From the NCBI GenBank assembly GCA_947168585.1, contig CAMVMK010000006.1, positions 15,984 to 79,983 of the forward strand: a stretch of DNA of 64,000 bases. The letters are read 5' to 3'. Below, one piece after another: positions 4,430 to 60,968 of the stretch. This DNA comes from an uncultured Fretibacterium sp. (lineage in GTDB: Bacteria > Synergistota > Synergistia > Synergistales > Aminobacteriaceae). The stretch's first letter is position 1, and each line of letters opens with the position of its first letter. The position numbers were made by a program, and so were the translations under genes. A model generated the notes under the pieces. That model saw only the letters and a program-made list of their open reading frames with translations. It did no database searches and had not been told where the DNA came from.

Positions 4430-4483
4430 TGAGGAATTAGGAAGTAGGAAAACTCCTCACCCCTAACCCCTCACTCCTCACCT
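4430..4483. repeat. heptad AGG-repeat element (purine arm plus pyrimidine arm)
   Basis: TGAGGAATTAGGAAGTAGGAAAA followed by CTCCTCACCCCTAACCCCTCACTCCTCACC. It lies between the rodZ-like stop and the DUF3990 start. Confidence 0.8.
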
Positions 4484-5359
4484 TTATTTGATTTTTTTAT
4501 AAGTTCCGTCAGTTTCGTAAGTATAAGTCTCGGCTTTTTTGGCTTTTGGATTGACTACGCCTAAATCTTTGCCGTTCAAAATTACTTGAGCCGCATTAGG
4601 TCTTCCGAAAAGTACACGGGCAGTCTCGTTAAAATCCCAGCGCATAACTTCACCGCGTTTCAAAGTTCTTCTATAAACCGGCTTGTCATCTCCAAATGAA
4701 ACACTGAGCCAAACGTCATTAACAGCGTGAATTTCAAGCGACGGTTTAATTTCAGGCACTGGCTCGGGCTCTTCTTCTTCTTCAATTTCTGAAGTTCCCG
4801 GATCATCTGAAATGGTTACGTCTTCAATTTCAGTAACGCTGACTTCAATATCACTTGGCAGAATTTCAGGACTTACAACACCGCCGCTTCCCGAAAAATT
4901 AAAAAATTTCATATTTTTGAGGTCAAGCCCTCCGCTGCTGACGGCGTACCAGACATAAATTCCCGTTCCTGCAAGTGCCGCGATTAAAACAAGGAACAGC
5001 CAAAAATGAGAAACTGACTTAAAACCCTCCGGCACTGATGAACCGTTGCTTAAAGCGTTCGCTACGTTACGGCTTGAAACTTCTCTTTTAACGGTGTGAA
5101 CGTTGTCTTTATATTCAAGCTGTGCATTAAAATCATCGAGCAAGTCTTCAGCTCCGATAACTTTTAGATACGTTCTTATAAAGCCCCGTACATAAACAGG
5201 CTCAGGGAAATCAGTATAATCGCCGTCTTCAATGCCGTGCAAATATTCAGGTCTGATTCTGGTTTTATCAAAAACAGCCTCGAGAGTAAGCCCCGCATTT
5301 TCACGGCGTTCTGCTACAATGCGCCCAAGATCTTTGAGTGCTTCATTATTCTTTATCAA
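4484..5359 (-). CDS. rodZ: RodZ-like cytoskeleton protein (HTH plus TM plus DUF4115-like C-terminus)
   Basis: N-terminal HTH (LTLEAVFDKTRIRPEYLHGIEDGDY...VYVRGFIRTY), a central TM segment, an acidic linker and a C-terminal beta domain. Confidence 0.7.
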   Translation of the reverse strand: MIKNNEALKDLGRIVAERRENAGLTLEAVFDKTRIRPEYLHGIEDGDYTDFPEPVYVRGFIRTYLKVIGAEDLLDDFNAQLEYKDNVHTVKREVSSRNVANALSNGSSVPEGFKSVSHFWLFLVLIAALAGTGIYVWYAVSSGGLDLKNMKFFNFSGSGGVVSPEILPSDIEVSVTEIEDVTISDDPGTSEIEEEEEPEPVPEIKPSLEIHAVNDVWLSVSFGDDKPVYRRTLKRGEVMRWDFNETARVLFGRPNAAQVILNGKDLGVVNPKAKKAETYTYETDGTYKKIK

Positions 5360-6038
5360 AATTTTTAATTGCCTCCTCTATGTCGTGCTTGGCCTTAGCA
5401 AGCCACGCCGCAGGATGTCCGCTCTTGAAAACGGCACTTCCTGTTACTATAGCATCGCACCCCGCAAGCACAGCACTAATTATATTATTTTCGTTAATAC
5501 CGCCGTCAATTTCAATCTTAAATTTATAATTATGAACGGCACGCAGGCTCACAAGCTCCCGGACTTTACGCAACGAACCCGGAATAAAAGTCTGTCCTCC
5601 GAAGCCAGGTGTTACGGACATTACTAAAATTAAATCAACGAGGTCAAGAATATTCTCATCAAGACTTGCTACTCTTGTCGGCGGACACAAAGCTACTCCG
5701 GCTTTAATTCCGGCGTTTTTAATTCTGCTTAAAGAAGCATGGATTAAATGTCCTTCGCTCTCTGCATGAAGAGTTATTGACGAAGGCCGAGCCGCTATAA
5801 ATTCCGGCAGAATAATATCATGTTCATCGACCATTAAATGAGCGTCAATATAAGCGTCCGGATATTGTTTTCTCAGAGCCGCCGCAAAACTCGAACCGAA
5901 AGATAAATTTTTTACAAAATGCCCGTCCATTATGTCAAGATGAAGCCAATCGAAATTATTTTCGAGAGACTCAATCGCGCCTGAAAGATTTAAGGGATTT
6001 GCGCCGAGCAACGAGGGAGCCAATGAAACTGTTCTCAT
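5346..6038 (-). CDS. rpe: ribulose-phosphate 3-epimerase
   Basis: Family-typical segments: LHLDIMDGHFV, DAHLMV, MSVTPGFGGQTFI, EIDGGIN. Confidence 0.9.
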   Translation of the reverse strand: MRTVSLAPSLLGANPLNLSGAIESLENNFDWLHLDIMDGHFVKNLSFGSSFAAALRKQYPDAYIDAHLMVDEHDIILPEFIAARPSSITLHAESEGHLIHASLSRIKNAGIKAGVALCPPTRVASLDENILDLVDLILVMSVTPGFGGQTFIPGSLRKVRELVSLRAVHNYKFKIEIDGGINENNIISAVLAGCDAIVTGSAVFKSGHPAAWLAKAKHDIEEAIKNFDKE

Positions 6039-6044
6039 AAAATT

Positions 6045-12299: not shown

Positions 12300-13451
12300 T
12301 TATTGAATTTTCTGGTAAGTTATGTGCATGTTATTAACGTCCGTGAGCATTAAATTATTGCCGTTGAGTTGAACGGTATTAGTGAAAGTTTCGCCCGTGC
12401 TTTTACGGCAGTTCAAAATATTTCCGTTGCGCTGGAAAGTTCCCATTTCTGCAGGCTGTCCGTTAAGCCAAATATAATAATTATTTCCTTGAAACTGCAG
12501 AACAAGCTGCTGTCCGTTCATGTAAGTTTGATAAACTCCGTCAAGATTTACTTCAGGAGCTTTGCCCGGAAATTTCGGAAATTCTTGTTTCGGAGTTTCA
12601 GGAGTTTCAGGGAATTTCGGCGTTGAAGTTTCAGGGGCTTTGAAAACTGGAGCGTTTGATTTTTTCTTACCGTCTTTATCTTTTACAAAAACTCCGGCGT
12701 TCATGCCCATGCCGTTCGGACCGCTCGTGAAAGTCATTACTAAAGTCTTTTCATAAGGATTATTGGCGCAAAAAATCACGTCTCTTTGCCCGTCGGGAGT
12801 TTTTACGGCAATTCTGTTATCTGAAACTGTATAAGTTCCAAATTTTTTATCTTGAATTTCGATTTCTCCGTCATCATCTAATTCGACTTCAGAACCGTCA
12901 GAGCATTTCCATTCGCCTTCGTACCATTTTGAAGGAAACCAGAAATTATTAAGCGGATATAAATATCTGACTTCGCCCGTCTCTACAGAAGCTAAAAGCC
13001 ACGCATATTTTTCATTATCTTCCGGCATCACTACGGCGTAATCTTCAGCAAAGATTTTATATTCGCCTTTATCGTCAGGAGCGTATGCTTTCATAACCGG
13101 AACTTCTCCGGAAAGGTCAAGAGTATAAAATCCCGGCGTAAGATTTTTCCCGTACACATCAATATTTGTGGGATAAGCGTTATGTTCGGAATCAAATTGC
13201 CCGATTTCAACAATAATTTCAGTAGCGGCGTAAATTTTTTCTTTTGGATTAACGCGCGACAAAGTTTCTTTGATGTGAGCATAACGGCCGGGCAAAAAAT
13301 CTTTTCCGTACTGTCTTGTGAGTTCGACATACGGAGCAATTCTTTCATCGCTCAAAGCCTGCTGTTCTGTAATTTTTGCGTTAGCTGCTGATGCTGATAA
13401 CATGAGGAGAAAAATCGCGGCAAAAACACTAAAAATTTTCTTGACGTTCAT
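12300..13451 (-). CDS. secreted protein of unknown function, paralog A, with an extra Pro-rich linker and C-terminal domain
   Basis: Signal peptide ending ASAANA. The first ~250 aa align by eye with the ORF at 13493-14257 (AKITEQQALSDERIAPYVELTRQYGKDFLPGRYAH vs AKVTEQEALNDERIAPYVELTKQSGKDFLPGRYAH). Confidence 0.7.
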   Translation of the reverse strand: MNVKKIFSVFAAIFLLMLSASAANAKITEQQALSDERIAPYVELTRQYGKDFLPGRYAHIKETLSRVNPKEKIYAATEIIVEIGQFDSEHNAYPTNIDVYGKNLTPGFYTLDLSGEVPVMKAYAPDDKGEYKIFAEDYAVVMPEDNEKYAWLLASVETGEVRYLYPLNNFWFPSKWYEGEWKCSDGSEVELDDDGEIEIQDKKFGTYTVSDNRIAVKTPDGQRDVIFCANNPYEKTLVMTFTSGPNGMGMNAGVFVKDKDGKKKSNAPVFKAPETSTPKFPETPETPKQEFPKFPGKAPEVNLDGVYQTYMNGQQLVLQFQGNNYYIWLNGQPAEMGTFQRNGNILNCRKSTGETFTNTVQLNGNNLMLTDVNNMHITYQKIQ

Positions 13452-13492: not shown

Positions 13493-14257
13493 CTATTCGT
13501 TTTTTCTGAGAAAAACTGCAGCATTTTCGTCCATTCCGTTCGGGCCGCTGGTAAAAGTTACAACGAGATAATCTTCATCGGCGTTATAGACACAATAAGC
13601 AGAATCTTTTTTGCCGTCGGGAGTTTTTACGAGGACTCTATTATCTGAAATTTCATAAGTTCCGAAAACTTTGCCTTGAGCGTATATAATTCCGTCAGAG
13701 TCTAACTCAAGTTCTGATTCGTCAGAAGCAATCCATTTTCCTAAGTGCCAATTTTTAGGAAACCAATACTCACTTAACGGGAATAAATAGTGAACATCGC
13801 CGTTTTCTGTAGAGCCTAAAAACCACGAGTATTCATTTTCGTTTTCGGGCACAAGGACGGCAAAATCTTCGGTTAAAGTTATATTGCTACCTAACTCGTA
13901 AGTTCTCATAACCGGCACTGCCCCTGAAAAGTTGAGAGTCATATAACGTGAAATTAAATTTTCGCCGTAAAAATCAAATTTTACGGGATAAGTTTTATTT
14001 TTTGAATCAAATTTTCCGATCTCGATAATTAAACTAGAAGCAGCAAGAATTTTTTCAGCCGGATTAACCCGCGACAAAATTTCTTTTACATGAGCATAAC
14101 GGCCGGGCAAAAAATCTTTTCCGGATTGCTTTGTGAGTTCGACATAAGGCGCAATTCTTTCATCGTTCAAAGCCTCTTGTTCAGTTACTTTTGCGTTCGC
14201 TGCAGTTGTTAATAACATGAGGAAAAAAAACGCGCTGATAATTTTCTTGACGCTCAT
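13493..14257 (-). CDS. secreted protein of unknown function, paralog B
   Basis: Signal peptide ending TAANA. It is a tandem paralog of 12300-13451, and the upstream leader sequence is also duplicated. Confidence 0.7.
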   Translation of the reverse strand: MSVKKIISAFFFLMLLTTAANAKVTEQEALNDERIAPYVELTKQSGKDFLPGRYAHVKEILSRVNPAEKILAASSLIIEIGKFDSKNKTYPVKFDFYGENLISRYMTLNFSGAVPVMRTYELGSNITLTEDFAVLVPENENEYSWFLGSTENGDVHYLFPLSEYWFPKNWHLGKWIASDESELELDSDGIIYAQGKVFGTYEISDNRVLVKTPDGKKDSAYCVYNADEDYLVVTFTSGPNGMDENAAVFLRKNE

Positions 14258-14330
14258 AAAAAAGTTCCCCCTGAATTAAAAATTTTATAAAAAGGATTTG
14301 GGAGTTAGGAAAAAGGGAAAAATTTTTTAA

Positions 14331-16444: not shown

Positions 16445-16491
16445 TTTTTATAAAAAAATAAAAACGGCCATGATTTTTATATCACAGCCGT
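16445..16491 (-). terminator. intra-operon intrinsic terminator/attenuator between the SBP and permease genes
   Basis: Minus-strand RNA ACGGCUGUGAU-AUAAAA-AUCAUGGCCGU (11 bp including 2 G.U) followed by UUUUAUUUUUUUAU. Confidence 0.75.
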
Positions 16492-16500: not shown

Positions 16501-16563
16501 GTTAGAATTTAGAAATTAGAAATTTAATAATTTTTTTCATTTCTAACTCCTAACTCCTCACTG
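16501..16563 (-). repeat. heptad AGG-repeat hairpin element
   Basis: 23-position stem (16501-16523 with 16539-16561). 18 positions are Watson-Crick. 3 are G.U in the minus (sense) transcript but A.C in the plus transcript. 2 are mismatches. The loop is 15 nt. Confidence 0.8.
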
Positions 16564-16568: not shown

Positions 16569-17528
16569 TTATTTTCCCGCGACTTTGATTCCTTTTTCGC
16601 CGAAGTATTTGACTGCGCCCTTGTGATAGGGAACTGCTGTGTAGCTTGCCGCGAAATTCAAATCAAGTTCCGCGCCCTTGGCGTGAGCCGCTGTGATTTC
16701 GTCAACGTTCTCAAAAATTCCGTAAAGGAAGTTATAAACGTCAGTCTCGGAAACGTCATCGTTTGCAATTATTACCGCGCCGACTGCAACTGTTACTGTG
16801 TCTTCGTCAGTACCGTAAAGATCTTTTTTAATAACGTTCATTGAGTAATAAGGAGAAGCCGCGATTAATTTCAAAACGTGTTCATCATCAAAGCCGACTA
16901 AATGAATTTTCTTTGTCGTAGCGAGTGAAGTTACTGCTGTCGTAGGAGCACCGGCAACGATGAAAGCCGCGTCAATTTTTCCGTCCTGTAACGCTTCAAC
17001 ACTGTCGCCGAATGATTGATAGGTCGGTTTGATGTCTTTTTCAACGTCAAGTCCGTAAGCATTAAGAACGTCAACGGCATTGAAATAAACTCCCGAACCT
17101 GCTGCTCCGATTGAAACATTTTTGCCTTTGAGGTCTGCAACTGTTTTAATAGCGGGGTCAAGAGTTACGATCTGTACCTGCTCCATATAAAGGTTAGCGA
17201 CTGTTGAGAAAGTATCGACTTTGTTGTCAAAAAGTCTCGTGCCTTTGTAAGCGTAAGCACCGACATCTGACTGAGTAAAAGCTATCTGGGCATCGCCGTC
17301 TTCCATTGCTTCGATATTAGCTTTTGAACCGCCTGAAGTAATTGCTGTAACAGTCGTGGAAGTTTTCTCGCCGACTTTGCCTGCCAAAACTCCGCCGAAA
17401 CCGTAATAAGTTCCCTGAGCTCCGCCGGTCGTGAAAACTAATTTTGTTCCGCCGGGAAGAGCGTCAGCAAACGCCGCGCAGCTAAGAGCCATAGCAAGGA
17501 CTAACGCTAAGGAAATAATTTTCTTCAT
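16569..17528 (-). CDS. TAXI-family TRAP transporter solute-binding protein
   Basis: Signal peptide. GGAQGTYYGFGGVLA and SGGSKANIEAM segments are typical of the TAXI/Imp family. Confidence 0.85.
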   Translation of the reverse strand: MKKIISLALVLAMALSCAAFADALPGGTKLVFTTGGAQGTYYGFGGVLAGKVGEKTSTTVTAITSGGSKANIEAMEDGDAQIAFTQSDVGAYAYKGTRLFDNKVDTFSTVANLYMEQVQIVTLDPAIKTVADLKGKNVSIGAAGSGVYFNAVDVLNAYGLDVEKDIKPTYQSFGDSVEALQDGKIDAAFIVAGAPTTAVTSLATTKKIHLVGFDDEHVLKLIAASPYYSMNVIKKDLYGTDEDTVTVAVGAVIIANDDVSETDVYNFLYGIFENVDEITAAHAKGAELDLNFAASYTAVPYHKGAVKYFGEKGIKVAGK

Positions 17529-17594: not shown

Positions 17595-19799
17595 TTATTC
17601 CGCCGCAAGTACGCAGGCTCTTACGATAATATCAACTGCCTCGCCTTTAGTTACAGGTCTGCCGTAATGAAAATTTCCTTCGGGTGCGTAGACGTTCAAA
17701 ATTCCTAAACGTGCTAGTGCCGTTACTGAATCTAAATTGCGGTTTTTTTCGATTTTGAAAGGAATTTTTGAGCCTTTTTTATGCGGAACATTTTTTAACA
17801 TCGGGAAAGCCTCATAGACAGCCCGTGCAAGGTCGCCGCGTGAAATTAATTTATCTTTGTCAAGGCCGGACGGAGTAATTTTTTTCTTTATTTTCAAAAC
17901 TTCTTGAGCCCGCGAAATAATTTCTTTAATATTAATAGTCGTTACAAGTTCATCAATTCCGAAAACGCCTTTGTCATCGCCTTTAATAATTGCCATTTCC
18001 CAGACTGGGTCGTCTAAAAGGAGCGAAAGATTAAACGAAGCCGTATGAGGATATTCTCTCGGAGCGGTTAAGCCGTAAAGATTTGAAATTTGAATACTTT
18101 TATTTAAGGCGTGAGTTTCAGGAACGTCTTTATAATTGCAAAGCGAAAGATTAACGCCCGAATTTAATAATTCCCATTGAACTTTTAACGGGTGAACTTC
18201 GCGCGGCTGTTTCTTAGTGCTTACTGCAACGGCGGCTAATGCTCCGGCGGCTTGGCCTGTCATCATTGTTATAGGCTGGAGTCTTAAAGCCCCCTGAGCA
18301 AGACGCGACATTGATAAATTTTTCTCAGCAGCAATGAAGCCGTCAGTGTCTTTAGGAATTAAAATATTCATGGGAACTTGGAAAGGCCCACGCGGACGGT
18401 TTACTACGGCACTGTTTGCGCGTTCGTCTAAATCCCATTCCATATCGGAGTCAGTGTTAGCTCCGTGAAGGTCAAGAATATAACCGCCGAGAGCAATAGA
18501 ATCTGAAAATTCGTGGCTCGTCTGTCCGTCCCTGTAACTTAAAGAATTTTGTAAAAGTTCATGAGAAGTCAAAGTATGACTGCCGACAATACGCCGCGAC
18601 TCTCTTACGTAAGGAATAACAGGCATATGTTTAACAATTTCCTGCCATTCAAGCGGAAGATCTTTTGCGATTTCGGGGACAACTCTGCTGTTATATTCGT
18701 CTTCAGCAACGCTCCAATCTTCGCCGAGTTCGTTTTGAATGTAATATATAAAATGAAGAGTTTTAATTAAAGCCTCGCGTTCAACGTTACGTCTTAATTC
18801 TCTGTCATCGAGATAAGAAACAGGAAGGCCGCGTTTACCGTTCCAAGCGTAAGTGCCGGGATAATCGTTGCCCCAGTTTAAGACGGTTTTAGTTATATAT
18901 TCGCGGTTGGATTTTCCTGCGTCATAGCTGTAAGGGTTCATGCTGTCGGGAAGCCCTCTGTAAGCGTTATGAGTTATAAAATTCACGGGAGTTTCAACAG
19001 GATAAGTATTTCTGAAATTAAATCCGTCTGCTGATACATAACTCTCGTAATTTCTTTTAGCGAGTTCATAGCCCGGCAAAGGTTCACGGGGTCTTAAATT
19101 ATCCGGCACTCCCTGCATATATTTATGAATGACTGCAGGCCAAGTTATTTCCTGAACCATTGACTCGGGATTTAAGAAAGGCGAGACAGAATTTCCGGCT
19201 CTGTAAGGAATTTTGCTCAAAGGGATCATATCGCCGTATTCAGTAGCGTCAATTAAAATTTTGCAGACATAACGGCGGTCTCCCTCGCGTGTTCTGACAG
19301 TAACGCCTGTGATAGTATTTTTATTTTTATTTACGCTGATAATTTCGGAACTCATTAAAAAATCTATCGTGCCTTTACGTCTTGCCTCGTTGACTAAATT
19401 CACTAAAACTTCTTGGCCTATATGAGGCTCAAAGGCCACACTGTTTGGAGTCCAGTAACATGTTCCCATAGATTTATTGCGGTAGTCGTAATAATTTTTA
19501 ATACGCGAAATTAATTCACGGTAAAGTCCGCTCTGCTGACGGCTCATATCGTCCATCGTAGAAACTCCGGCGGCTGTGGCTTGTCCTCCGATCCAAGTGC
19601 TGGGCTCAACGACTAAAACGCTCGCCCCCATTCGTGCTGCCTGAATAGCTGCTGAAATTCCGCCTGTTCCTGCTCCGGCTACGATGATGTCATAAGAATT
19701 TCTTGCTGCCCTGCGTTGAGCAGAAAAAGCTGACGAAGACGAAAAAATTATCATAGCGGTTAATAATAAAATTACTCGCAGATTTCTTATAGATTTCAA
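17595..19799 (-). CDS. exported FAD-dependent oxidoreductase with an SLH-like C-terminal tail
   Basis: Signal peptide and Rossmann motif DIIVAGAGTGGISAAIQAARMGASVLVVE. The C-terminus (ALARLGILNVYAPEGNFHYGRPVTKGEAVDIIVRA) resembles an S-layer-homology motif. Confidence 0.75.
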   Translation of the reverse strand: MKSIRNLRVILLLTAMIIFSSSSAFSAQRRAARNSYDIIVAGAGTGGISAAIQAARMGASVLVVEPSTWIGGQATAAGVSTMDDMSRQQSGLYRELISRIKNYYDYRNKSMGTCYWTPNSVAFEPHIGQEVLVNLVNEARRKGTIDFLMSSEIISVNKNKNTITGVTVRTREGDRRYVCKILIDATEYGDMIPLSKIPYRAGNSVSPFLNPESMVQEITWPAVIHKYMQGVPDNLRPREPLPGYELAKRNYESYVSADGFNFRNTYPVETPVNFITHNAYRGLPDSMNPYSYDAGKSNREYITKTVLNWGNDYPGTYAWNGKRGLPVSYLDDRELRRNVEREALIKTLHFIYYIQNELGEDWSVAEDEYNSRVVPEIAKDLPLEWQEIVKHMPVIPYVRESRRIVGSHTLTSHELLQNSLSYRDGQTSHEFSDSIALGGYILDLHGANTDSDMEWDLDERANSAVVNRPRGPFQVPMNILIPKDTDGFIAAEKNLSMSRLAQGALRLQPITMMTGQAAGALAAVAVSTKKQPREVHPLKVQWELLNSGVNLSLCNYKDVPETHALNKSIQISNLYGLTAPREYPHTASFNLSLLLDDPVWEMAIIKGDDKGVFGIDELVTTINIKEIISRAQEVLKIKKKITPSGLDKDKLISRGDLARAVYEAFPMLKNVPHKKGSKIPFKIEKNRNLDSVTALARLGILNVYAPEGNFHYGRPVTKGEAVDIIVRACVLAAE

Positions 19800-19821: not shown

Positions 19822-19874
19822 AATTAGGAAGATTTTATTTTTTTATTCCTAATTCATAACTCCTAATTCATAAT
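19822..19874. repeat. heptad AGG-repeat hairpin element in a divergent intergenic region
   Basis: AATTAGGAA-15 nt-TTCCTAATT (perfect 9 bp) followed by CATAACTCCTAATTCATAA. Confidence 0.75.
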
Positions 19875-22556: not shown

Positions 22557-24330
<1,774 letters not shown>

Positions 24331-24332
24331 GA

Positions 24333-42675: not shown

Positions 42676-42718
42676 AAGAATTAGGAGTGAGAAAAAATCT
42701 CTCATTCCTAATTCTTTT
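42676..42718 (+). terminator. intrinsic terminator built from a heptad AGG-repeat hairpin
   Basis: AAGAAUUAGGAGUGAGA (42676-42692) pairs with UCUCAUUCCUAAUUCUU (42700-42716). 17 bp with one G.U in the sense transcript, then UU. Confidence 0.8.
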
Positions 42719-47830: not shown

Positions 47831-49840
47831 ATGAAAAAAATTAGCGGCGCGTTTTATTTTATAGTGATAGCGTGTGCTGTGTTTTCATTATCAGGGTGCA
47901 GCGGAAGTTCAAGTAAAAATAATACCGCAGGCACAGCCGAAGTCGCAGAAGTTGCCGTGCTGACCTCTCCGGCCTTAGAAGTTTATAGAGATTATAAAAT
48001 CATCAAAGGCGCGTCAATATCGGGCATGGACGGTGCTCAATATTACGTGGCTGGCGACATCGGAGACGAAAACTCTCAGGCTACTTTGAATTTAGGTTTC
48101 AGCGGAGAATTTGACGTTAATTCAACTTTTGCTGTCGTCAACGTCTCGACAAACCGCGTAGTTTTTGCTTACGACCCTAAAGGAAACACAGACGAATGGA
48201 AAACAAGCGGAAATATCGCAACTACCGGCGGCTATCGTTTGAGTTATAACGGCTTGACGATTGAACAGGAAACGGCTGAAGTTTCAGCAGCTGTCGGCCC
48301 GGTCTATTCATCAAGCAGCATAAATTACATAAAATTAAATTCAACTTCAGCAACAATAACTAAATCATCAAGTTCAAAGTCCGTCCCTAAATATGATTAC
48401 GTTTGGCACGCCGAGCCCGACTCAAACGGCGAATATTTTTCTGAAGGTCTTTACGGCGATATTATAGATAGTTATTCTGTAGATGACGGAGTTTATATTG
48501 CCCGTGATGTTAGATATTTGACTGAAAACGCAAATTTCACCGGAACTGCAACAAAAGACGGAGAAACAGAATACGCTGCTTATTATTCTGATTCAGTAGC
48601 AAGCGAAGCCGCAAGTAATTACGGATCAGCTTACGGAGGGCCTTATATTTTCGCAACTCTTCCAAGAACTCAAAATTCTTCACTCTCAAGCGTTACAGCT
48701 TCAATGACTCATTCAGCATCGGAAGCGTATAACAATCCCGTTCTTCATATTGCTGAAGCCGGAATTTATTCGCTCTCAGGAACTTGGAACGGTCAAATTT
48801 ATGTCGAGGCTGACGCTGTTATAATCCTCAACGGCGTTACTGTTATCTGCACAGTTGCTCCGGCGATAATTTTTGACGCGGCTGAATACGGCCTGTCTGA
48901 TGAAACTTCTGTAGCTTCAACTTGGAAAACTTTAGGAAAAACTTTGCTTGATGACTTAACGGACGCTAACGCAAATTTAGTGATCATTGCTGACGGAACT
49001 ACGAACACTTTTACGGGCTCGAATGTTTACAGAATTTTGAAAGCCGAACCGAAATCTTCAGCGACTAAAGTCAACGGCAAAGATATTTCCGACCAGAAAA
49101 AATTATATAAAATGGACGGAGCTTTTTATTCTTACGTCTCGCTTGCTATCTGCGGAGAAAATGACGGAACGGGAATTTTGAATATTAATTCGTCAACTTT
49201 CGAGGGTTTAGGCTCTGAACTTCATTTGACTGTCGAGGGCGGAAAAATTAACGTTACTGCTCCCGATGACGGAATTAACGTCAATGAAGATAATATTTCC
49301 GTTTTTACTCAGCTCGGCGGAACTCTTACAATTAAATCAACATACGGCGACGGAATTGACTCTAACGGCTATATCGCAATCAACGGCGGAAATTTGAATA
49401 TCTCAGCAGGAACTCAAAAAACAGGCACAGCCGGTGAAGCAGGACTTGACGTTGAAAAAGATTATTATATTTCAAGCAGCGCAAAATACACATGGACAGC
49501 GGCAGGCTCTTCAGGTTCTTCAAATTTTCCGATAATAACGAGCGGCGACATAAGCAGGGACGTAACCTGGCGTGAAATTCAACAGGATAATCTTAATTCA
49601 ACATCGACATCAACATCAACAACTGTTAATAAAGAAGAAAGTTATAAATACGATGACGCGAATATTTTAACAGCCGCCAAACAAACTGAAAAAGGCGTAA
49701 CGGCTATTAATGTCGGACGCGGAAATAATTTAAGTTTTATTCAGAGCGACACAGACACTAAAGCCCGAAATATAAGCACGAGCGGAAATGTTTTCAGGCT
49801 CGACAGAAAAATTAACACGTTTTCAGGAATTAGAAATTAA
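47831..49840 (+). CDS. lipoprotein with a Cthe_2159-like beta-helix, longer paralog
   Basis: Lipobox FSLSGC. Shares HSASEAYNNPVLHI..SGTWNGQI and DDGINVNED..TYGDGIDSNGY blocks with 46208-47725. Confidence 0.65.
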   Translation: MKKISGAFYFIVIACAVFSLSGCSGSSSKNNTAGTAEVAEVAVLTSPALEVYRDYKIIKGASISGMDGAQYYVAGDIGDENSQATLNLGFSGEFDVNSTFAVVNVSTNRVVFAYDPKGNTDEWKTSGNIATTGGYRLSYNGLTIEQETAEVSAAVGPVYSSSSINYIKLNSTSATITKSSSSKSVPKYDYVWHAEPDSNGEYFSEGLYGDIIDSYSVDDGVYIARDVRYLTENANFTGTATKDGETEYAAYYSDSVASEAASNYGSAYGGPYIFATLPRTQNSSLSSVTASMTHSASEAYNNPVLHIAEAGIYSLSGTWNGQIYVEADAVIILNGVTVICTVAPAIIFDAAEYGLSDETSVASTWKTLGKTLLDDLTDANANLVIIADGTTNTFTGSNVYRILKAEPKSSATKVNGKDISDQKKLYKMDGAFYSYVSLAICGENDGTGILNINSSTFEGLGSELHLTVEGGKINVTAPDDGINVNEDNISVFTQLGGTLTIKSTYGDGIDSNGYIAINGGNLNISAGTQKTGTAGEAGLDVEKDYYISSSAKYTWTAAGSSGSSNFPIITSGDISRDVTWREIQQDNLNSTSTSTSTTVNKEESYKYDDANILTAAKQTEKGVTAINVGRGNNLSFIQSDTDTKARNISTSGNVFRLDRKINTFSGIRN

Positions 49841-55645: not shown

Positions 55646-57127
55646 ATGGAACAGACAGGCGAACAGCAGAATTTTAGTTTTTCAAGAAGATTAACGCCTT
55701 TTAACGCTTGGACTTTGTCATTCGGAGGTCTGATAGGTTACGGGGCTTTTGTAATGCCCGGTACAACTTTCTTGAAAGGCGCAGGAGTTTTAGGGACGCT
55801 TATCGCCATGCAGATCGGAGCGTTTACGATGCTTATAATTTCGTATGCTTACGGTTACATGGCGGCAAAATTTCAAATAAACGGCGGGCAATTTATGTAC
55901 GCTGAAAGAGCATTCGGGAAAAAACACGGATTTATATGCGCGTGGTTTTTAGGGCTTTGTTATTTCAGCATAATTCCGATGGACGCGGCGGCTTTGAGTT
56001 TTTTATTCAGGACTTTTTACGGCGATTTTTTTAAGTTCGGCTATCTTTATAAAATTTCCGGCTATCATGTTTATTTCGGAGAATTTTTAGTCGCGGCTTT
56101 GACTTTAATTTTATTCGCGTACATTACTGTAAAAGGAGCAAAATTCGGCGCAGTAATTCAAAACGTAATGGTAATAATTTTAATTGCCGGAATTATTTTG
56201 ATTTTATTTTTCTCGTTTTTCAGCGATGAAGTAGAGCCCTCAAATTTTGAGCCGTTATTTTATCCTGATGACCGAAGCCCTATTTTGCAGGTTCTATCGC
56301 TCGTTGTCGTAGCTCCGTGGGCATTTGTCGGCTTTGATATAGTTCCTCAGCTTGCCGAAGAGGCGGATTTTACTCATCATAAAGTTAAAGTTATCATGGA
56401 TACCTGCATAGTTGCGGGCTGTGCTGCCTATATAGCTTTGACATTCTTAGCTGCTTCTGTAATTCCGTCCGGTTATCCAAATTGGGCTGTTTACGTTGAT
56501 AATTTACATAAACACGACAGTTATGGTGCTGTAATGACTTTTTTTGCGTCCTATAAAATTTTAGGATTTACGGGGCTGTTTATAATTGAAGCTGCGGCTG
56601 TCTGCGGAGTTTTGACGGGAATTTTAGCATTTTATGTTGTAACGAGCCGTTTATTATATACAATGGCGCGTGAAGAAATGCTGCCGTCATGGTTCACAGT
56701 CTTAAATAAAGACGGAGTGCCTGTCAATTCGATTTTATTTTGCATGATCGTTTCGATTTTTACTTTGCTGACAGGCCGGGACGCAATAGGTTTGACTGTT
56801 GATGTTGCTTCTCTCGGCGGTGCTGTAGGTTTTGGATATACTTCGCTTGCTTCATGGAAATATTCACGGGAAGAAAACCGCAGGGACGTAGCTGTCTTAG
56901 GAATGTTAGGAGTTATATTTTCAGTTATATTTGCGGTGCTGCTTTTAGTTCCGATACCGGGAATTTCAAGTTCTCTTTCAACAGAAAGTTATTTAATTTT
57001 AATAATCTGGATAGCTATGGGAGGATTTTTCTATCAAGTCGGAATTAAAAAAGAATTAGGAATTAGGAATGAAAAATTAGAAAAATATATTTACCTTCCT
57101 ACTCGTCAAGACGGCGGACAAGCCTGA
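55646..57127 (+). CDS. APC-superfamily amino-acid permease
   Basis: About 12 TM helices. The C-terminal tail (GIKKELGIRNEKLEKYIYLPTRQDGGQA) is read from a heptad repeat and overlaps the convergent yvcK by 29 nt. Confidence 0.75.
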   Translation: MEQTGEQQNFSFSRRLTPFNAWTLSFGGLIGYGAFVMPGTTFLKGAGVLGTLIAMQIGAFTMLIISYAYGYMAAKFQINGGQFMYAERAFGKKHGFICAWFLGLCYFSIIPMDAAALSFLFRTFYGDFFKFGYLYKISGYHVYFGEFLVAALTLILFAYITVKGAKFGAVIQNVMVIILIAGIILILFFSFFSDEVEPSNFEPLFYPDDRSPILQVLSLVVVAPWAFVGFDIVPQLAEEADFTHHKVKVIMDTCIVAGCAAYIALTFLAASVIPSGYPNWAVYVDNLHKHDSYGAVMTFFASYKILGFTGLFIIEAAAVCGVLTGILAFYVVTSRLLYTMAREEMLPSWFTVLNKDGVPVNSILFCMIVSIFTLLTGRDAIGLTVDVASLGGAVGFGYTSLASWKYSREENRRDVAVLGMLGVIFSVIFAVLLLVPIPGISSSLSTESYLILIIWIAMGGFFYQVGIKKELGIRNEKLEKYIYLPTRQDGGQA

Positions 57128-58187
57128 AAATAACGGACGCTAATTTTTGCGGATCATGACGGACTACGCGGCCTTCTTTTTCGCTCTCGAAAATTGAAAC
57201 TAACGGGGCTTCAACATAAATACAGCCCATATTTTTTATAGTTTCGCGCTGTCTGTAATCCAAAAATAACGGCGATGCTCCGTCTTTTTTATAAGCGTCA
57301 ATAATATCGTCAGGGATAGGCTCGTTATTTGCTACAACAAAATCCGGGACGCTTCCGAGTGCCACGCTGACCCATTCAAGATGCTGAAGAATATCCATTC
57401 CTTGAGTTTCGTCAGGCTGAGTCATTAAATTACAGATATAAATTTTAGGAACGGGCGACTCTTTTAATTTGTCGGCAAAATCCGGCAGCAATAAATTCGG
57501 AATTACGCTCGTAAATAAACTTCCGGGCCCTAATAAAATTACATCAGCTTCATCGACCGCGCTCAAAACTTCAGGCAAAGGGCGCGCATTCATAGGCTCA
57601 AGCCAAATTTCGTCAAGTTCATGGCCGTGTTCGGAAATATCGAGCTCGCCTTTGACATTAAGACCGCTTTTAGTTTTTCCCATTAAAGTTATGCTTTCAG
57701 TCGTAACGGGCAAAACCCGGCCTCTGATTGAAAGCAGGTGATTCATTTTCTCAACGGCTGTGCTGAAATCTCCGCTCATTTCCGTAACTGCGAGCAATAA
57801 TAAATTTCCTAAGCTGTGTCCCGCAAGTTCGCCCCTGTCAAATCTGTAATCAAGAATTTTTTTGAGTTCGTTATCGTTTTCAGCGAGAGCCGCTATACAG
57901 TTTCTGACATCGCCGGGCGGTAACATTCCCCATTCGTTTCGTATACGGCCTGAAGAGCCTCCCTCGTCTGTAACGGCGACAACAGCTGTGATATTTCGGG
58001 TAAATCCTTTAATTCCGCGCAACAAAGTTGAAAGCCCCGTGCCTCCTCCTACAGCTACGATATAAGGACCGTTAGAAAGTCTTTTTGAAATTGCTCTTTC
58101 AATTACAGGTTTGCCGGAGAAAATTTTAATCCGTCCGAACAAAAATAAAATTATTAAAGTCGTTAAGACTCCTAATACAAAATTCAT
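57099..58187 (-). CDS. yvcK: YvcK/CofD-family gluconeogenesis factor
   Basis: VAVGGGTGLSTLLRGIK, VTDEGGSSGR and GPGSLFTSVIPNLL motifs. Confidence 0.85.
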   Translation of the reverse strand: MNFVLGVLTTLIILFLFGRIKIFSGKPVIERAISKRLSNGPYIVAVGGGTGLSTLLRGIKGFTRNITAVVAVTDEGGSSGRIRNEWGMLPPGDVRNCIAALAENDNELKKILDYRFDRGELAGHSLGNLLLLAVTEMSGDFSTAVEKMNHLLSIRGRVLPVTTESITLMGKTKSGLNVKGELDISEHGHELDEIWLEPMNARPLPEVLSAVDEADVILLGPGSLFTSVIPNLLLPDFADKLKESPVPKIYICNLMTQPDETQGMDILQHLEWVSVALGSVPDFVVANNEPIPDDIIDAYKKDGASPLFLDYRQRETIKNMGCIYVEAPLVSIFESEKEGRVVRHDPQKLASVIFRLVRRLDE

Positions 58188-59059: not shown

Positions 59060-59152
59060 AGAACTAAATTTTTAACTCCTCTTTCAAATTTTAGCCGCCG
59101 CGATTATAACACGATTAAGGGTGAGGGGTGAGGAGTGAGGAATGTTTTTTCA

Positions 59153-59483: not shown

Positions 59484-59492
59484 TGATATAAT
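59484..59492 (+). promoter_or_regulatory. extended -10 promoter (TGATATAAT) for the DUF3798/ABC operon
   Basis: Perfect TGnTATAAT about 50 nt upstream of the TTG start at 59542, which is preceded by AAAGGAGGA. Confidence 0.55.
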
Positions 59493-59541
59493 AAAATGCG
59501 ATTTCAATTCATATTTTAATTTTTCAAAGGAGGATTTTATT

Positions 59542-60876
59542 TTGAAATTCAAAACCGCATTTTTAGCTATGCTTGTGTTGGCTTTGTTCGCAGGTTCAGC
59601 ATTTGCCGCAGGACTTCCTACAACTGACGAACTTAAAGGCGCACTCAAAGACGCTGTAAAGGACGCAGTTAAAGAGGGCGTGAAAGAAGCTGTAGCCGAA
59701 GCTACGAAGAAAGAAGCAGACTTCCACATCGGTATCGTTACCGGAACAGTCTCGCAGAGTGAAGACGATCTTCGCGGAGCTGAGTTAATGATTAAAATGT
59801 ACGGCGACACAGCTAACGGCGGAATGATCACCCACATCACTTACCCGGATAATTTCCCGTCTGAGCAGGAAACTACAATCAGCCAAATTTTGGGGCTCGC
59901 TGACGATCCTAAAATGAAAGTTATCGTTGTAAATCAGGCCGTCCCGGGAACTGCTGAAGCATTCAGAAGAGTACGCGAAAGACGCAGCGATATTATTTTG
60001 CTTGCGGGCGAACCTCACGAAGACCCCGGCGTAATTTCCGAAGCCGCTGACATTGCTACACATACCGACCATATCGGACGCGGTTATACTATTCCGCTCG
60101 GTGCTAAGAAAATGGGCGCAAAAACTTTCGTTCATATTTCTTTCCCGCGCCACATGAGTTACGAAACACTCGGACTTAGACGCGCTATCATGGAAGAAGC
60201 CTGCAAAGATTTAGGGCTTAAATTCGTCTTCGAGACCGCTCCCGACCCTACGAGCGATGTAGGAATGGCCGGTGCTCAGCAGTATATTCTTGAGAATGTT
60301 CCCGCGTGGATTGAAAAATACGGCAAAGATGCTGCTTTCTTCTGCACAAATGACGGCGAAACAGAACCTTTATTAAAGCAGATCGCTGCTCTTGGCGGCT
60401 ATTTTGTTGAGGCTGACTTGCCCTCGCCTTTAATGGGTTATCCCGGAGCTTTAGGAATTGACCTCTCGAAAGAACAGGGTGACTGGCCTGCAATCTTAAA
60501 GAAAGTTGAAGACGCTGTTGTAAAAGCAGGCGGCGGCAACCGTATGGGAACATGGGCTTATTCATGGGGCTACACAACTACGGCGGCTCTTGCTGAATTC
60601 GGAAAACGCGCAGTCGAAAACGGAGCATTAGAAAACAAAGCTAAATATATAGGCTCTGCAAGGGCTCTTAAAGACATGAGAGCGGCTTATGATGAGTTCT
60701 GCCCGGGCGCAAAATGGGGAGCAAGTTACTTCATCGAGGCTTCAACAGGCGTTAAGAACGGACATTTTATTTTGCTTCGTCAAGATACTTACGTCTTAGG
60801 CGGCGACTATCTCGGACTTGCTGACGTTGAAATCCCTGAAAAATATTTCAAAATCCGCATGACACCCGCAAAATAG
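59542..60876 (+). CDS. DUF3798-family substrate-binding protein of an ABC importer
   Basis: Signal peptide, then FHIGIVTGTVSQSEDDLRGAELMIKMYG...ITYPDNFPSEQETTISQILGLADDPKMKVIVVNQAVPGT, which matches the DUF3798 family as I remember it. ABC genes follow. Confidence 0.75.
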   Translation: MKFKTAFLAMLVLALFAGSAFAAGLPTTDELKGALKDAVKDAVKEGVKEAVAEATKKEADFHIGIVTGTVSQSEDDLRGAELMIKMYGDTANGGMITHITYPDNFPSEQETTISQILGLADDPKMKVIVVNQAVPGTAEAFRRVRERRSDIILLAGEPHEDPGVISEAADIATHTDHIGRGYTIPLGAKKMGAKTFVHISFPRHMSYETLGLRRAIMEEACKDLGLKFVFETAPDPTSDVGMAGAQQYILENVPAWIEKYGKDAAFFCTNDGETEPLLKQIAALGGYFVEADLPSPLMGYPGALGIDLSKEQGDWPAILKKVEDAVVKAGGGNRMGTWAYSWGYTTTAALAEFGKRAVENGALENKAKYIGSARALKDMRAAYDEFCPGAKWGASYFIEASTGVKNGHFILLRQDTYVLGGDYLGLADVEIPEKYFKIRMTPAK

Positions 60877-60968
60877 TGAGGGGTTAGGGGTTATGCCTGC
60901 CTGTCGGCCTACCTCTGCCTGCGCAGACAGGTGTCGGTAGACAGGCAGACAGGGGAGTGAGGAGTGAA
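60875..60968 (+). repeat. composite repeat: heptad AGG units flanking a GC-rich CCTGCCTG/CAGGCAG nested palindrome
   Basis: GTGAGGGGTTAGGGGTT-ATGCCTGCCTGTCGGCCTACCTCTGCCTGCGCAGACAGGTGTCGGTAGACAGGCAGACAGG-GGAGTGAGGAGTGA. CTGCCTGTC pairs perfectly with GACAGGCAG (9 bp), with an inner ACCU..CUGC-CUGC-GCAG..AGGU helix. Confidence 0.8.

Follow-up and report, generated by a model that had tools for sequence, protein, structure and literature searches.

The 64-kb stretch of DNA analysed here (the window), from a rumen member of the Synergistaceae (Synergistota), carries a dispersed family of short heptad arrays, which is a further member of the already described bacterial tandem heptanucleotide repeats. 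Our preferred reading, to which we give a probability of about one half, is that these arrays represent a lineage-specific bloom of repeats of the STRR or long-SSR kind, mostly laid out as inverted hairpins and largely selfish or near-neutral.

Abundance and distribution

Period-7 arrays of GTGAGGA, GTTAGGG or ATTAGGA units, or their complements, were found in about 50-fold excess over shuffled sequence. The AGRRNNNAGRRNNNAGRR pattern occurs 14 times in the window against 0.28 expected, a count reached by no shuffle, and the TNAGGRNTNAGGR pattern 17 times against 0.25. A pattern-free period-7 detector returned 14 runs in the window, 13 of which are of the GTGAGGA-type family, and in the window and its relatives together 26 runs of period 7 were detected in comparison to 2, 1, 0, 0 and 1 for periods 8, 9, 10, 11 and 12. 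The dispersed family proposed in the initial annotation is therefore real and is more frequent than composition predicts. Inspection of the sequence has confirmed the described heptads at all 19 of the coordinates it had listed; 17 of these loci are real members and two are doubtful (21583-21606, probably chance, and 14300-14318, marginal), and two further loci, 27228-27252 and 61030-61046, had been missed.

The window is 93.5% coding and 6.5% intergenic. The bases of the elements are 80% intergenic, and they take up 18% of the intergenic bases and touch 15 of the 46 intergenic regions, i.e. about one third of the gene gaps. The density of the arrays is lineage-specific: there are nine strong period-7 runs in the 64 kb of the window and eight in 58 kb of the closest relatives, against six in about 330 kb of more distant Synergistaceae and four in 987 kb of Negativicutes. 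A second GC-rich motif, CAGGCAG/CTGCCTG, is present in both copies for which it had been claimed, yet most of its 11 matches in the window are genic, and the inner GC-rich palindrome does not recur in relatives at the compared loci.

Architecture and position of the elements

About half of the copies are hairpins made of a purine arm, a loop and a pyrimidine arm, as had been proposed, and those at 4430, 16501, 24333, 27312 and 42676 fold 3.5-6 standard deviations below dinucleotide shuffles. The remaining copies are single arrays, mostly purine-rich on the mRNA strand and beginning 0-7 nt past a stop codon. The copies consist of 2-5 units of mixed types and share the unit grammar only; loops and the order of arm units are not the same in any two copies of the window, so there is no sign of simple copy-and-paste from one master element. 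Many of the elements below sit between co-transcribed genes.

The hairpin at 4430-4483 has, on the mRNA (-) strand, the purine arm AGGTGAGGAGTGAGGGGTTAGGGGTGAGGAG, a TTTT loop and the pyrimidine arm CCTACTTCCTAATTCCTCA. It lies 0 nt past the stop of a RodZ-like gene (4484-5359) and 5' of the SD of a DUF3990 gene (3934-4404; both neighbours assigned by Pfam), and folds at -25.7 kcal/mol in sense and -16.1 in antisense, with shuffles at -9.4+/-2.3. The doubtful copy at 14300-14318 (GGGAGTTAGGAAAAAGGGA) has about two units, carries its purine-rich strand opposite to the strand of the flanking genes and fails both the 3-unit and the period-7 detector. The 3' UTR hairpin at 16501-16563 (-) begins 5 nt past the stop of a TRAP/TAXI substrate-binding-protein gene (16569-17528), folds at -18.0 in sense and -12.1 in antisense and is followed by a separate terminator-like hairpin at 16464-16491 (-). 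At 19822-19874 (-), a purine array with a short hairpin lies in the 5' leader of gene 17595-19799 and ends directly 5' of its SD, GAGGAGTG. The stretch 21583-21606 (+), which contains one CAGGCAGG, is probably a chance non-member, being a conserved coding part of gene 21008-21673 whose relatives align over residues 1-220 of 221. A weak short hairpin, GAGAATTTAGGAAT ... ATTCTTCACTCTC, is found at 21695-21732 (+), 21 nt past the stop of the same gene, and folds at -6.3 against -4.3+/-1.9 for shuffles. The composite element 21780-21879 (+) has in order an SD-like GGAGTGA with a purine-rich stretch, an inner GC-rich hairpin at about 21826-21853 (CCTGTCTGCC...GGCAGG) and the pyrimidine array CTCACCCCTCACTCCTAACCCCTCACT directly 5' of gene 21891-22541.

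Hairpin 24333-24376 (+) is placed between a SerRS gene (23053-24330), 2 nt past its stop, and a WecG-family gene (24387-26084), and folds at -15.6 in sense and -6.2 in antisense. In the added solitary purine array 27228-27252 (+; GTTAGGGGTGAGGGGTTAGGCGTTA), the TAG of the third unit is the stop codon of gene 26131-27246. The long imperfect hairpin 27312-27383 (+) has arms of unlike unit types (GTTAGGA/AGCAGGA vs CACTTCT/CACCCAT), ends 14 nt 5' of the start of gene 27398-28441 and folds at -22.9 in sense and -26.5 in antisense (shuffles -12.5+/-2.4). An ATTAGGA-type purine array with a short 3' partner arm at 29348-29397 (+) takes in the stop codon of gene 28434-29351; a bidirectional terminator-like hairpin (29419-29448) follows about 20 nt further on. 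Two solitary purine arrays on the minus strand flank a HigB/HigA cassette as direct repeats: the short CAGTGAGGGGTTAGAGA at 31410-31426, 7 nt past the higA stop and 5' of a gatZ-like gene (30087-31403), and GAAGTGAGGGGTGAGAGGTTAGGGGTTAGAC at 32048-32078, 4 nt past the stop of gene 32083-32433 and 5' of higB. These repeats include a duplicated leader (32013-32044 vs 31381-31412, 84% identical, family D14). The solitary array 32961-32993 (+) presents the pyrimidine strand, TAACTCCTCACTCCTAACTTCTAACTCCTCACC, on the mRNA, opposite to the general purine-on-mRNA bias, and overlaps the stop and the last 5 codons of gene 32495-32977.

The purine array 38828-38852 (+) fills the gap between genes 37627-38820 and 38857-39258; a ParE-family toxin gene comes next after the latter. 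The last unit of the array, TGAGGAA, lies 7 nt 5' of the ATG of 38857-39258 and is the sole SD-like sequence there. A near-perfect 17-bp hairpin (AAGAATTAGGAGTGAGA / TCTCATTCCTAATTCTT) at 42676-42716, between the convergent genes 41839-42669 and 42801-43382, folds at -22.9 and -21.0 on the two strands (shuffles -6.8+/-2.7) and is followed by TTTT without a terminator-like call. The copy at 44804-44878 (-) is coding; read in frame, it specifies the 25-residue interdomain linker ISNLSPLIPHCPFSLLTPHSSLITH of a CbiA / GATase_3 amidotransferase (gene 44219-45520, domains at residues 4-184 and 240-424). Its pyrimidine strand is on the mRNA, so that in-frame stop codons do not arise; homologues show the linker to be hypervariable, and the window protein does not exceed them in length. 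An ATTAGGA-type array with a weak partner arm at 57051-57103 lies at the overlapping called ends of the convergent ORFs 55646-57127 and 57099-58187, with the stop of the minus-strand gene within a unit AGTAGGA. The solitary purine array 59119-59143 (+; GGGTGAGGGGTGAGGAGTGAGGAAT) is located in a 482-nt divergent intergenic region, about 400 nt 5' of gene 59542-60876. At the other end of this gene, the composite element 60875-60968 (+) begins with the purine array AGTGAGGGGTTAGGGGTTA overlapping the stop codon, continues with a GC-rich imperfect palindrome (60891-60955) that recurs in no compared locus, and closes with a second purine array, GGAGTGAGGAGTGA, in direct and not inverted orientation; the added short purine array TTTAAGGAATGAGGGAT at 61030-61046 (+) shares the same intergenic region.

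Comparison among species and strains

Comparison of orthologous intergenic regions, a check suggested in the initial annotation, has revealed presence and absence of the elements among relatives and also between strains of 98% identity. Hairpin 24333-24376 is absent in all 22 species-level relatives, in which the SerRS and WecG-family genes abut or overlap. About 14 nt on each side of it probably both align to the single junction sequence of L121, and the hairpin is identical in the strain contig L310 (98% identity). Hairpin 16501-16563 is absent at the orthologous junction of L122, where the flanking proteins are 89-93% identical. The junction of 19822-19874 is empty in L122 and occupied in L123 by a different array, (AACTCCT)n, while in L124 the SD is formed by the last unit of a short array. 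The leader with element 21780-21879 is also found in L122, minus about 75 nt corresponding to the GC hairpin and the pyrimidine array, and in other relatives variable inserted genes occupy the junction 21673/21891. The element 29348-29397 is present in the strain contig L307, whereas L306 and L310, otherwise 98% identical, have 5 nt in place of the 51 nt of window positions 29344-29394; the boundaries are ambiguous between one 51-nt replacement and two insertions around a kept AATTAAAAA. The elements are not position-conserved among species and turn over fast. Given these absences from orthologous junctions, and the one element that differs in presence between strains of 98% identity, a conserved regulatory role is unlikely.

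Relation to known repeats

The initial annotation knew of no description of such a family, which was mistaken as to kind, as intergenic tandem heptanucleotides including inverted pairs have been described (PMC4692102, PMC4679880). A description of the GTGAGGA-type unit family, or of heptanucleotide repeats in Synergistota, was not found in the literature. The STRRs of cyanobacteria (Calothrix/Nostoc) are dispersed and mostly intergenic tandem heptanucleotides of lineage-specific abundance (PMC4692102). The window arrays resemble them in the tandem 7-nt units, the many dispersed and mostly intergenic copies and the lineage-specific abundance; they differ in unit sequences, in belonging to Synergistota and in being short, mixed arrays of 2-5 units that are frequently paired into hairpins. 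The units of STRR1-3 are CCCCAGT, TTGGTCA and CAACAGT.

In Xanthomonas, the GGGAATC repeat makes up convergent inverted pairs with stem-loop potential at 70-75 sites, most of them transcribed (Rehm et al. 2015, PMC4692102). The Xanthomonas repeats, 83% of which are retained between two species, and the Nostoc GGGGA(C/T)T repeats have been read as G-quadruplex formers (PMC4692102). The window elements are likewise intergenic heptamers, with inverted stem-loop pairs as in Xanthomonas, but most of the arrays lack four G-tracts and the elements are not kept between species. The TAACTGA direct repeats of Beggiatoaceae, cyanobacteria and Bacteroidetes (MacGregor 2015, PMC4679880) are intergenic with a fixed orientation to the downstream gene, contain stop codons, overlap those of upstream genes and occur inside ORFs in reverse orientation only; CsrA, S1 and Csp are their proposed binders, and their patchy phylogenetic spread suggests horizontal transfer (PMC4679880). 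The window arrays are similar in overlapping upstream stops and in the reversed in-ORF copy, but they hug the upstream stop and many are hairpins, whereas TAACTGA sets are almost never inverted (1 of 170) and mostly stop 1 nt short of the start codon, in place of an SD (PMC4679880). With REP/REPIN and MITE elements they share the short, dense intergenic hairpins in 3' UTRs or between cistrons and the presence or absence among strains. They differ in having the 7-nt unit grammar in place of a conserved full-length sequence or head motif, and no clear terminal inverted repeats with target-site duplication; no RAYT or transposase was identified for them.

Alternative explanations

A possible but clearly weaker explanation is that the arrays are selected cis-acting mRNA elements: 3' stabilisers resembling the REP element between malE and malF, sites of intercistronic processing, or standby/re-initiation platforms on which ribosomes are kept between coupled genes by the SD-like GGAG/AGGA units. 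A strand bias relative to transcription is indeed found, the purine array being on the mRNA strand in 10 cases against 3 where the flanking genes are co-directional, and the three exceptions are 3' arms of hairpins. At 12 junctions the array contains the upstream stop codon or begins 0-7 nt past it, although such starts are expected anyway in a genome that is 93.5% coding. The 16501 hairpin stands between a substrate-binding-protein gene and a terminator-like hairpin, the last unit at 38828 is the only SD of its gene, and neither gene 24387 nor gene 27398 has an SD past its hairpin, so that here the stem could hold the upstream stop close to the downstream start. The asymmetry claimed earlier, G.U pairs in the sense transcript and A.C in the opposite one, has remained as a trend (18 with G.U in sense vs 9 with A.C in sense, over 11 hairpins), but it is not significant (p=0.12), is reversed in hairpins 27312 and 21695, is absent in heptad stems elsewhere (47 vs 70; 21 vs 20 by energy) and could stem from a C-to-T bias on the non-template strand. 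The purine-on-mRNA bias and the weak G.U trend are together a hint of some RNA-level constraint; the opposite orientation of the solitary array 32961, the lack of positional conservation among species and the presence or absence among strains argue against selected elements.

It is rather doubtful that the elements are an ORF-less miniature form of pan-bacterial small cassettes bounded by inverted heptad arrays, in which the arrays would act as boundaries or recombination sites and the commonest cargo would be a PF05635 (S23p, four-helix-bundle, Avd-like) protein that may recognise the heptads. Heptad arrays adjoin 64 of 80 PF05635 genes, and 38 of the 80 lie between inverted-complementary arms (38 of the 41 two-sided cases, mean duplex energy -55 kcal/mol); the heptad density is 3.06 per kb near these genes vs 0.12 per kb further away, a 25-fold enrichment. 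The unit sequence of these arms varies widely, while period 7 and the inverted layout are constant; in related loci of the Xanthomonadales group, GGGAATC-type arms flank PF05635 genes on both sides in L172 (Rhodanobacteraceae) and L190 (Aquimonas) and on one side in L187 (Dokdonella) and L188 (Stenotrophomonas), and none of 20 PF05635 heptad loci is in rRNA. Arrays of (GTGAGGA)n were found in more than 120 genomes of many phyla, and carriers include Nostocales, Lyngbya and Leptolyngbya. The unit family is often laid out as an inverted pair, purine arm first and pyrimidine arm second, that encloses a variable GC-rich insert, and a purine arm, ORF and pyrimidine arm with GTGAGGA units occur in L058, L104 and L010. 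By analogy, the window hairpins look related to these repeat stems. However, only 3 (GTGAGGA)n loci out of 120 include a PF05635 gene, and the window and 430 kb of relatives contain none, so the tie to IVS-like cassettes is no more than an analogy; no convincing ORFs are present in the inserts that separate the arms elsewhere. In the window, the HigBA cassette is flanked by two arrays with a duplicated leader, an array lies directly upstream of each of the three TA-like modules noted among the scanned genes, and the junction 21673/21891 receives variable genes in relatives, but the HigBA arrays are direct and no recombinase was identified. The 23S IVS with an S23p ORF offers a comparable complementary-termini stem, which in Coxiella burnetii includes two to three tandem GACAGAT heptamers, variable among strains, and is cut by RNase III at the first repeat (PMC4990558). 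The window elements differ in having no ORF, a location outside rRNA and shorter stems.

Replication slippage, by which contingency-type SSRs would lengthen and shorten where they stand and might act as expression switches for adjacent genes, is improbable. The structure is tandem, period 7 is an SSR length over-represented in many bacteria for which polymerase slippage is the proposed cause (PMC4679880, PMC4692102), and the number of units at a given junction varies from species to species. On short timescales it is largely refuted by the constant unit number of six arrays among three or four strains at 98% identity. Array 31410-31426 is identical in four strain contigs, 32048-32078 is constant in length in all strains compared, 27228-27252 and 27312-27383 each show one substitution and unchanged length in L306, and at 32961-32993 an adjacent TT-to-CC change in L306 and L308 turns one unit type into another, again with unchanged length. 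The arrays are moreover short and of mixed unit types, and slippage leaves the complementary second arm unexplained.

A role as G-quadruplex formers, or as sponges or binding arrays for CsrA or another GGA-recognising protein, is equally improbable. GGA/AGGA motifs are dense and a few arrays carry GGGG every 7 nt, like the quadruplex-forming Nostoc GGGGAYT repeats (PMC4692102). In the hairpin copies, however, the GGA motifs are base-paired in stems and not in loops, and the 2-5 units lie inside operons instead of making up a dedicated sRNA that has a promoter and terminator of its own, so the CsrB-like sponge suggested earlier does not fit; most arrays have at most two runs of three or more G, and Rfam gave no match to the elements. 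The least likely suggestion is that of Rho-independent terminators. Stable hairpins do lie downstream of genes and TTTT follows 42676, but none of the heptad hairpins in the window received a terminator-like call, their stems are AT- and G.U-rich with the U-run missing in seven of eight, separate terminator-like hairpins accompany the 16501 and 29348 elements, and many elements lie between co-transcribed genes.

Proposed origin and consequences

As a bloom of largely selfish or near-neutral STRR-like repeats, the elements would be gained and lost as whole units at the DNA level. This reading is favoured by the enrichment and intergenic confinement, the lineage-specific density, the lack of conservation among species, the constant unit number alongside whole-element presence or absence among strains and the absence of terminator-like calls, together with the spread of the unit family over many phyla, the heptad arrays beside PF05635 genes and the heptamer stem of the Coxiella IVS. 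Weighing against it are the loops and arm orders that no two window copies share, the ambiguous boundaries of the one polymorphic copy, the hints of RNA-level constraint and the missing PF05635 genes in the window and its relatives. The elements would persist only where they are harmless, such as the short gap that separates a stop codon from the ribosome-binding site or terminator behind it; other tolerated sites would be leaders and, once, a hypervariable linker of a protein, there in the orientation that avoids in-frame stops. They would be transcribed along with their host operons, and the GGAG/AGGA-rich purine arm would pair with the pyrimidine arm into stems of 15-30 bp, which may tolerate register shifts because both arms are tandem repeats. 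By analogy with the Coxiella 23S IVS, the most likely molecular consequence would be a double-stranded RNA target for RNase III or a structure protecting 3' ends, and a few units may have been co-opted by the host, as with the SD of gene 38857.

Results

Occurrence and enrichment of the heptad arrays

The window has a low GC content of about 40%, and a search with its WecG-family protein (24387-26084) identified rumen Synergistaceae / Fretibacterium-like MAGs as relatives. The initial annotation had claimed short heptad arrays at 19 coordinates, and on reading the sequence there the heptads were present as described. A figure of about 19 real loci in 64 kb stands; in the list itself, 21583-21606 (inside a conserved coding stretch) and 14300-14318 (marginal) are doubtful, and two further copies, 27228-27252 and 61030-61046, had been missed. 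The heptads are found well above the composition expectation, with 14 matches against 0.28 expected for the AGRRNNNAGRRNNNAGRR pattern and 17 against 0.25 for the TNAGGRNTNAGGR pattern in the window. A pattern-free period-7 detector returned 14 runs in the window, 13 of them heptad elements, and TRF also lists period-7 rows. When 366 kb of relatives were added to the window, 26 runs of period 7 were counted versus 2, 1, 0, 0 and 1 for periods 8 to 12. On a simple gene map, intergenic DNA makes up 6.5% of the window, yet of the 953 bases in elements 80% fall there; elements take up 18% of the intergenic sequence and reach into 15 of the 46 intergenic regions. The heptad observation is confirmed, and its first interpretation has been borne out in part.

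Diverged direct repeats also occur in the window as two pairs (13082-13381 with 13897-14196; 47224-47520 with 49075-49371), with 76-79% identity across 200-300 nt. These mark tandem paralogues (12300-13451 with 13493-14257; 46208-47725 with 47831-49840) and are unrelated to the heptads.

Anatomy and placement of the elements

The form claimed for many copies, a purine arm followed by a loop and a pyrimidine arm, was seen at 4430, 16501, 19822 (short), 24333, 27312 and 42676 and more weakly at 21695, 29348 and 57051, while 27228, 31410, 32048, 32961, 38828, 59119 and 61030 are solitary arrays. Two copies are composite: at 21780-21879 the arms enclose an inner GC-rich hairpin, and at 60875-60968 a GC-rich palindrome lies between two purine arrays in direct orientation. 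Folding energies of the good hairpins range from -16 to -26 kcal/mol, 3.5-6 standard deviations under shuffled sequences. Loops are of 4-15 nt or hold GC-rich palindromes inside, and neither loops nor unit order are ever common to two copies in the window, which speaks against a master copy having been multiplied by simple copy-and-paste. The GC-rich CAGGCAG palindrome was rejected as a second dispersed element, as it did not recur in the relatives and matches to its motif were mostly coding.

At 12 junctions the array, read on the mRNA strand, starts 0-7 nt past the upstream stop codon or supplies that stop, and the array at 38828 ends in the unit TGAGGAA, 7 nt ahead of the ATG, with no other Shine-Dalgarno (SD)-like sequence there. 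The presence of TGA and TAG within units, together with 7 being 1 mod 3, had raised the idea that every array provides a stop codon in each of the three frames. This is true of just 3 of the 14 sense purine arms, because TGA and TAG occupy different unit positions, and the idea was discarded. In six ORFs (26131-27246, 28434-29351, 32495-32977, 55646-57127, 57099-58187 and 59542-60876) the stop is supplied by a heptad unit or a few codons are read into the array, so that the C-termini differ from those of array-free relatives, for example IESN-stop here and IEN-stop in the strain contig L306. In annotation, arrays can lengthen or shorten called ORFs, as in the first four of these.

The copy at 44804-44878 is coding and in frame, with its pyrimidine strand on the mRNA, and encodes the 25 residues that link the CbiA domain to the GATase_3 domain. 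The linker is hypervariable throughout the homologues, which the window protein does not exceed in length. An origin as a 75-nt insertion was rejected; the copy occupies the linker without making the protein longer overall. In the homologue at locus L226 (about 4440-4650) the linker holds another, GC-rich insertion of some 35 residues, so that repeat-like DNA seems to land there repeatedly.

Strand orientation and wobble pairs

A strand bias relative to transcription was indeed found: between co-directional genes, counted in the window and its close relatives, the mRNA strand carries the purine array in 10 cases and the pyrimidine array in 3, all of these 3 being 3' arms of hairpins. The bias may arise from a filter against pyrimidine arrays resembling anti-SD or antisense-strand purine arrays. 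It may also reflect an origin of the arrays from SD-like sequence, hints of which are an array continuous with the SD in the relative L124 and the resemblance of the commonest unit, GGAGTGA, to the extended SD GGAGGTGA.

Further, the best hairpins had been described as carrying G.U in the sense transcript wherever pairing departs from Watson-Crick, in support of selection on the sense-strand RNA. When the 5' arms were aligned to the complements of their 3' partners in 11 hairpins from the window and close relatives, 18 positions were G.U in the sense strand and 9 were A.C in the sense strand. The tendency is retained at p=0.12, with the direction reversed at 27312 and 21695; it is a trend and not proof of such selection, and a C-to-T bias on the non-template strand would yield the identical pattern. 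With this weak trend in the window and no sense/antisense wobble asymmetry in the stems of 41 loci of the PF05635 family (see below), the idea that heptad stems in general are under wobble selection at the RNA level was rejected. That the elements are selected cis-regulatory features is, on the whole, unlikely.

Stability among strains and turnover between species

Strain contigs were found through identical HigB and HigA proteins (L306/L310, of 10.7 kb, L307, L308 and L309) and are about 98% identical to the window. Five of seven exact-protein look-ups gave no match, and a metagenome scan for intermediate relatives gave nothing nearer than 88%. Among the 98% strains (three to four contigs), the unit number is unchanged in arrays 24333, 27228, 27312, 31410, 32048 and 32961, and array changes are point substitutions only, one adjacent TT-to-CC change swapping the unit type. 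Equal unit numbers in six arrays rule out, at strain level, phase-variable contingency SSRs with slippage hypervariability. The hairpin at 29348-29397 is present in L307 and wholly missing in L306/L310, where 5 nt stand in place of 51 nt. The boundaries of this event fit either one replacement or two insertions flanking a retained AATTAAAAA, so that it may have been a gain or a loss. Together, the equal unit numbers and the absence of a whole hairpin indicate that the elements are stable once present and are gained or lost as units.

Orthologous intergenic regions, proposed earlier as a comparison, showed that the elements are not conserved across species-level relatives. At junction 24330/24387 the genes abut or overlap and the element is absent in 22 of 22 such relatives. 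At junction 16418/16569 the closest usable relative, L122, keeps a terminator-like hairpin without the heptad hairpin. At 19799/19956, L122 has nothing, L123 a different (AACTCCT)n array and L124 a short array running into the SD. At 21673/21891 the window is about 75 bases longer than L122, and more distant relatives carry assorted inserted genes. Element density is high in the window and in the relatives L121, L123, L124 and L143 and is lineage-specific; elsewhere it is low, with 6 runs in about 330 kb of distant Synergistaceae and 4 runs in 987 kb of Negativicutes.

The SerRS and WecG-family genes, which overlap in L121, L143 and L122, are separated by the hairpin in the window (24316-24400). 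The flanks of this 24333 hairpin, of about 14 nt (ATTAGAAAATAAGA and ATTGTAAATTATGA, 10/14 identical), both align to the single junction of the relatives; they resemble a target-site duplication, or else a duplication needed for intact ends of both genes. In more distant Synergistaceae, other heptad arrays were observed, namely (TTCGGCG)n of up to 10 units, (GCTCACA)n and (GCTGGTY)n (L126, 952; L136, 4503 and 11562; L134, 6101; L228, 4744), and these follow immediately on good sigma-70-like -35/-10 boxes, where a transcript is predicted to start.

A further explanation is that the arrays are boundaries of small gene cassettes. In its favour, two arrays, accompanied by a duplicated leader, flank the HigBA module, and an array lies directly upstream of each of the three TA-like modules noted when about 20 of about 62 genes were scanned, so that further TA-like modules may exist. 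Even so, this explanation is judged improbable for the elements as a whole. At the module itself (31381-32078), HigB (31732-32013) and HigA (31434-31706) lie between two direct purine heptad arrays, each followed by the near-identical leader TTAAAA(A)TGAAAGGAGAAAAAATT, with 84% identity over 32 nt. From the sequence, it looks as if the HigBA cassette brought, or caused, duplication of the gatZ leader.

Comparison with known classes of repeat

A role as Rho-independent terminators, one of those first suggested, was rejected: no heptad hairpin is among the terminator-like sites in 1-60000. The tails beyond the 3' arms are not T/U-rich (42676 weakly so), and separate GC-containing terminator-like hairpins adjoin two elements, at 16464-16491 (minus strand) and 29419-29448. 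Rfam and tRNA scans of the window gave no match. With regard to a CsrB-type sponge RNA, the elements are of 17-100 nt, lie within operons, hold their GGA motifs in stems and have no Rfam match. No array contains the four or more tracts of at least three G expected of a G-quadruplex; the best (4453-4483, 27228-27252, 32048-32078 and 60875-60893) hold two GGGG, and most units have GGA or GGAG only. The conserved full-length sequence and target-site duplications of REP/REPIN or MITE families were likewise not found: repeat families D3 and D4 reach only 69-87% identity over 30-35 nt, owing to the unit common to the copies, the loops are all different, and a target-site-like duplication is arguable at 24333 only.

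Reports of tandem heptanucleotide repeats in bacteria go back to about 1990. Over-representation of heptameric SSRs and the heptanucleotides of Calothrix are among the reports cited in PMC4692102, which also covers the Xanthomonas GGGAATC repeats, with 70-75 inverted pairs, and the Nostoc GGGGAYT repeats; TAACTGA repeats have been described as well (PMC4679880). The window elements share with STRR and heptameric long SSRs the head-to-tail 7-nt units in many dispersed, mainly intergenic copies. Their units (GTGAGGA, GTTAGGG, ATTAGGA) and their host, Synergistaceae and not cyanobacterial, differ from those of STRR1-3. Hence they are of the same kind as STRR and not members of the named families; they probably represent a lineage-specific bloom of these repeats, in a new phylum.

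Heptad arrays in other phyla and the PF05635 family

An exact 25-mer, (GTGAGGA)x3.5, was used as query against species-representative genomes. It is present in more than 120 of them among the matches listed, with GC from 35 to 75%, including Planctomycetota, Campylobacterota, Gamma- and Betaproteobacteria, Acidobacteriota, Cyanobacteria, Bacteroidales, Clostridia and others. At many of these loci a purine arm is followed 10-400 nt on by a pyrimidine arm, around variable GC-rich hairpins. The arm pairs often enclose nested GC-rich hairpins with tetraloop-like caps (L023, L040 and L045, for example). PF05635 ('23S rRNA-intervening sequence protein', S23p; TIGR02436 'four helix bundle protein') aside, no convincing ORF was found between arms in other phyla. 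PF05635 ORFs lie between arms at L058 (4392-4830), L104 (5285-5695) and L010 (3960-4505).

In a sample of 80 loci from many phyla encoding relatives of the S23p protein, a period-7 array lies at most 200 nt from the ORF in 64. Arrays are found on both sides in 41, and 38 of these 41 are inverted-complementary. The density of period-7 runs is 3.06 per kb near the PF05635 ORF versus 0.12 per kb further out, and the mean arm-arm duplex energy is -55 kcal/mol. Units vary widely (GTGAGGA, GGGAATC, CGTGAAA, AGTTTCG, GGTCGTT and others); period 7 and the inverted layout are constant despite this variety. None of 20 loci tested lies in rRNA.

In Coxiella, the 23S intervening sequence (IVS) has 2-3 tandem GACAGAT heptamers in its stem, ahead of the S23p ORF, and RNase III cuts at the first repeat (PMC4990558). 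The window hairpins 4430, 16501, 24333, 27312 and 42676 resemble such IVS-like S23p cassettes in having inverted-complementary heptad arrays able to form a long stem, and differ from them in that no PF05635/TIGR02436 ORF lies between the arms. Neither the window nor 430 kb of its relatives yielded a PF05635 gene to a profile built from the 80 proteins, and such a gene is present at only 3 of 120 (GTGAGGA)n loci among the matches listed. The arrays are thus the broader phenomenon and the protein one frequent tenant. S23p is unmentioned in the heptamer-repeat papers PMC4692102 and PMC4679880, and a limited literature search found no paper tying heptamer repeats in general to PF05635 genes, nor one stating the adjacency of these genes to tandem heptanucleotide arrays.

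Discussion

Our preferred reading, to which we give a probability of roughly one half, is that the elements are a bloom of heptanucleotide repeats, mostly inverted arrays, that behave as fast-turnover and largely selfish DNA. They would be tolerated only in the gap between stop codon and RBS, in leaders and in one disordered linker, and the stems predicted in their transcripts would be double-stranded and tolerant of register shifts. RNase III processing or 3'-end protection is the most probable fate of these predicted stems, judging from the analogy with IVS stems.

More tentatively, inverted tandem-heptanucleotide arrays may be the shared signature of one class of small insertion elements that is spread across the bacteria, a proposal against which the odds presently lie. 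If it is true, the S23p or 'four helix bundle' (PF05635, Avd-like) protein would be the usual cargo in many phyla, the 23S rRNA intervening sequences a special case that landed in rRNA, and STRR, GGGAATC and the window elements ORF-less relatives. In that case the period of 7 would be set by machinery that the elements encode, through recognition or synthesis, and not by generic slippage.

Heptanucleotide repeats are over-represented in many genomes, and their origin and function are a long-standing question. The window provides a compact and well-behaved example from a new phylum, with three constraints: array length is stable among strains, elements turn over between species, and whole hairpins are gained or lost. 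Of greater importance than this result are the arm architecture found across phyla and the link to PF05635, which joins three puzzles, namely the heptamer repeats, the rRNA intervening sequences and the S23p family, and together they make an old question experimentally approachable.
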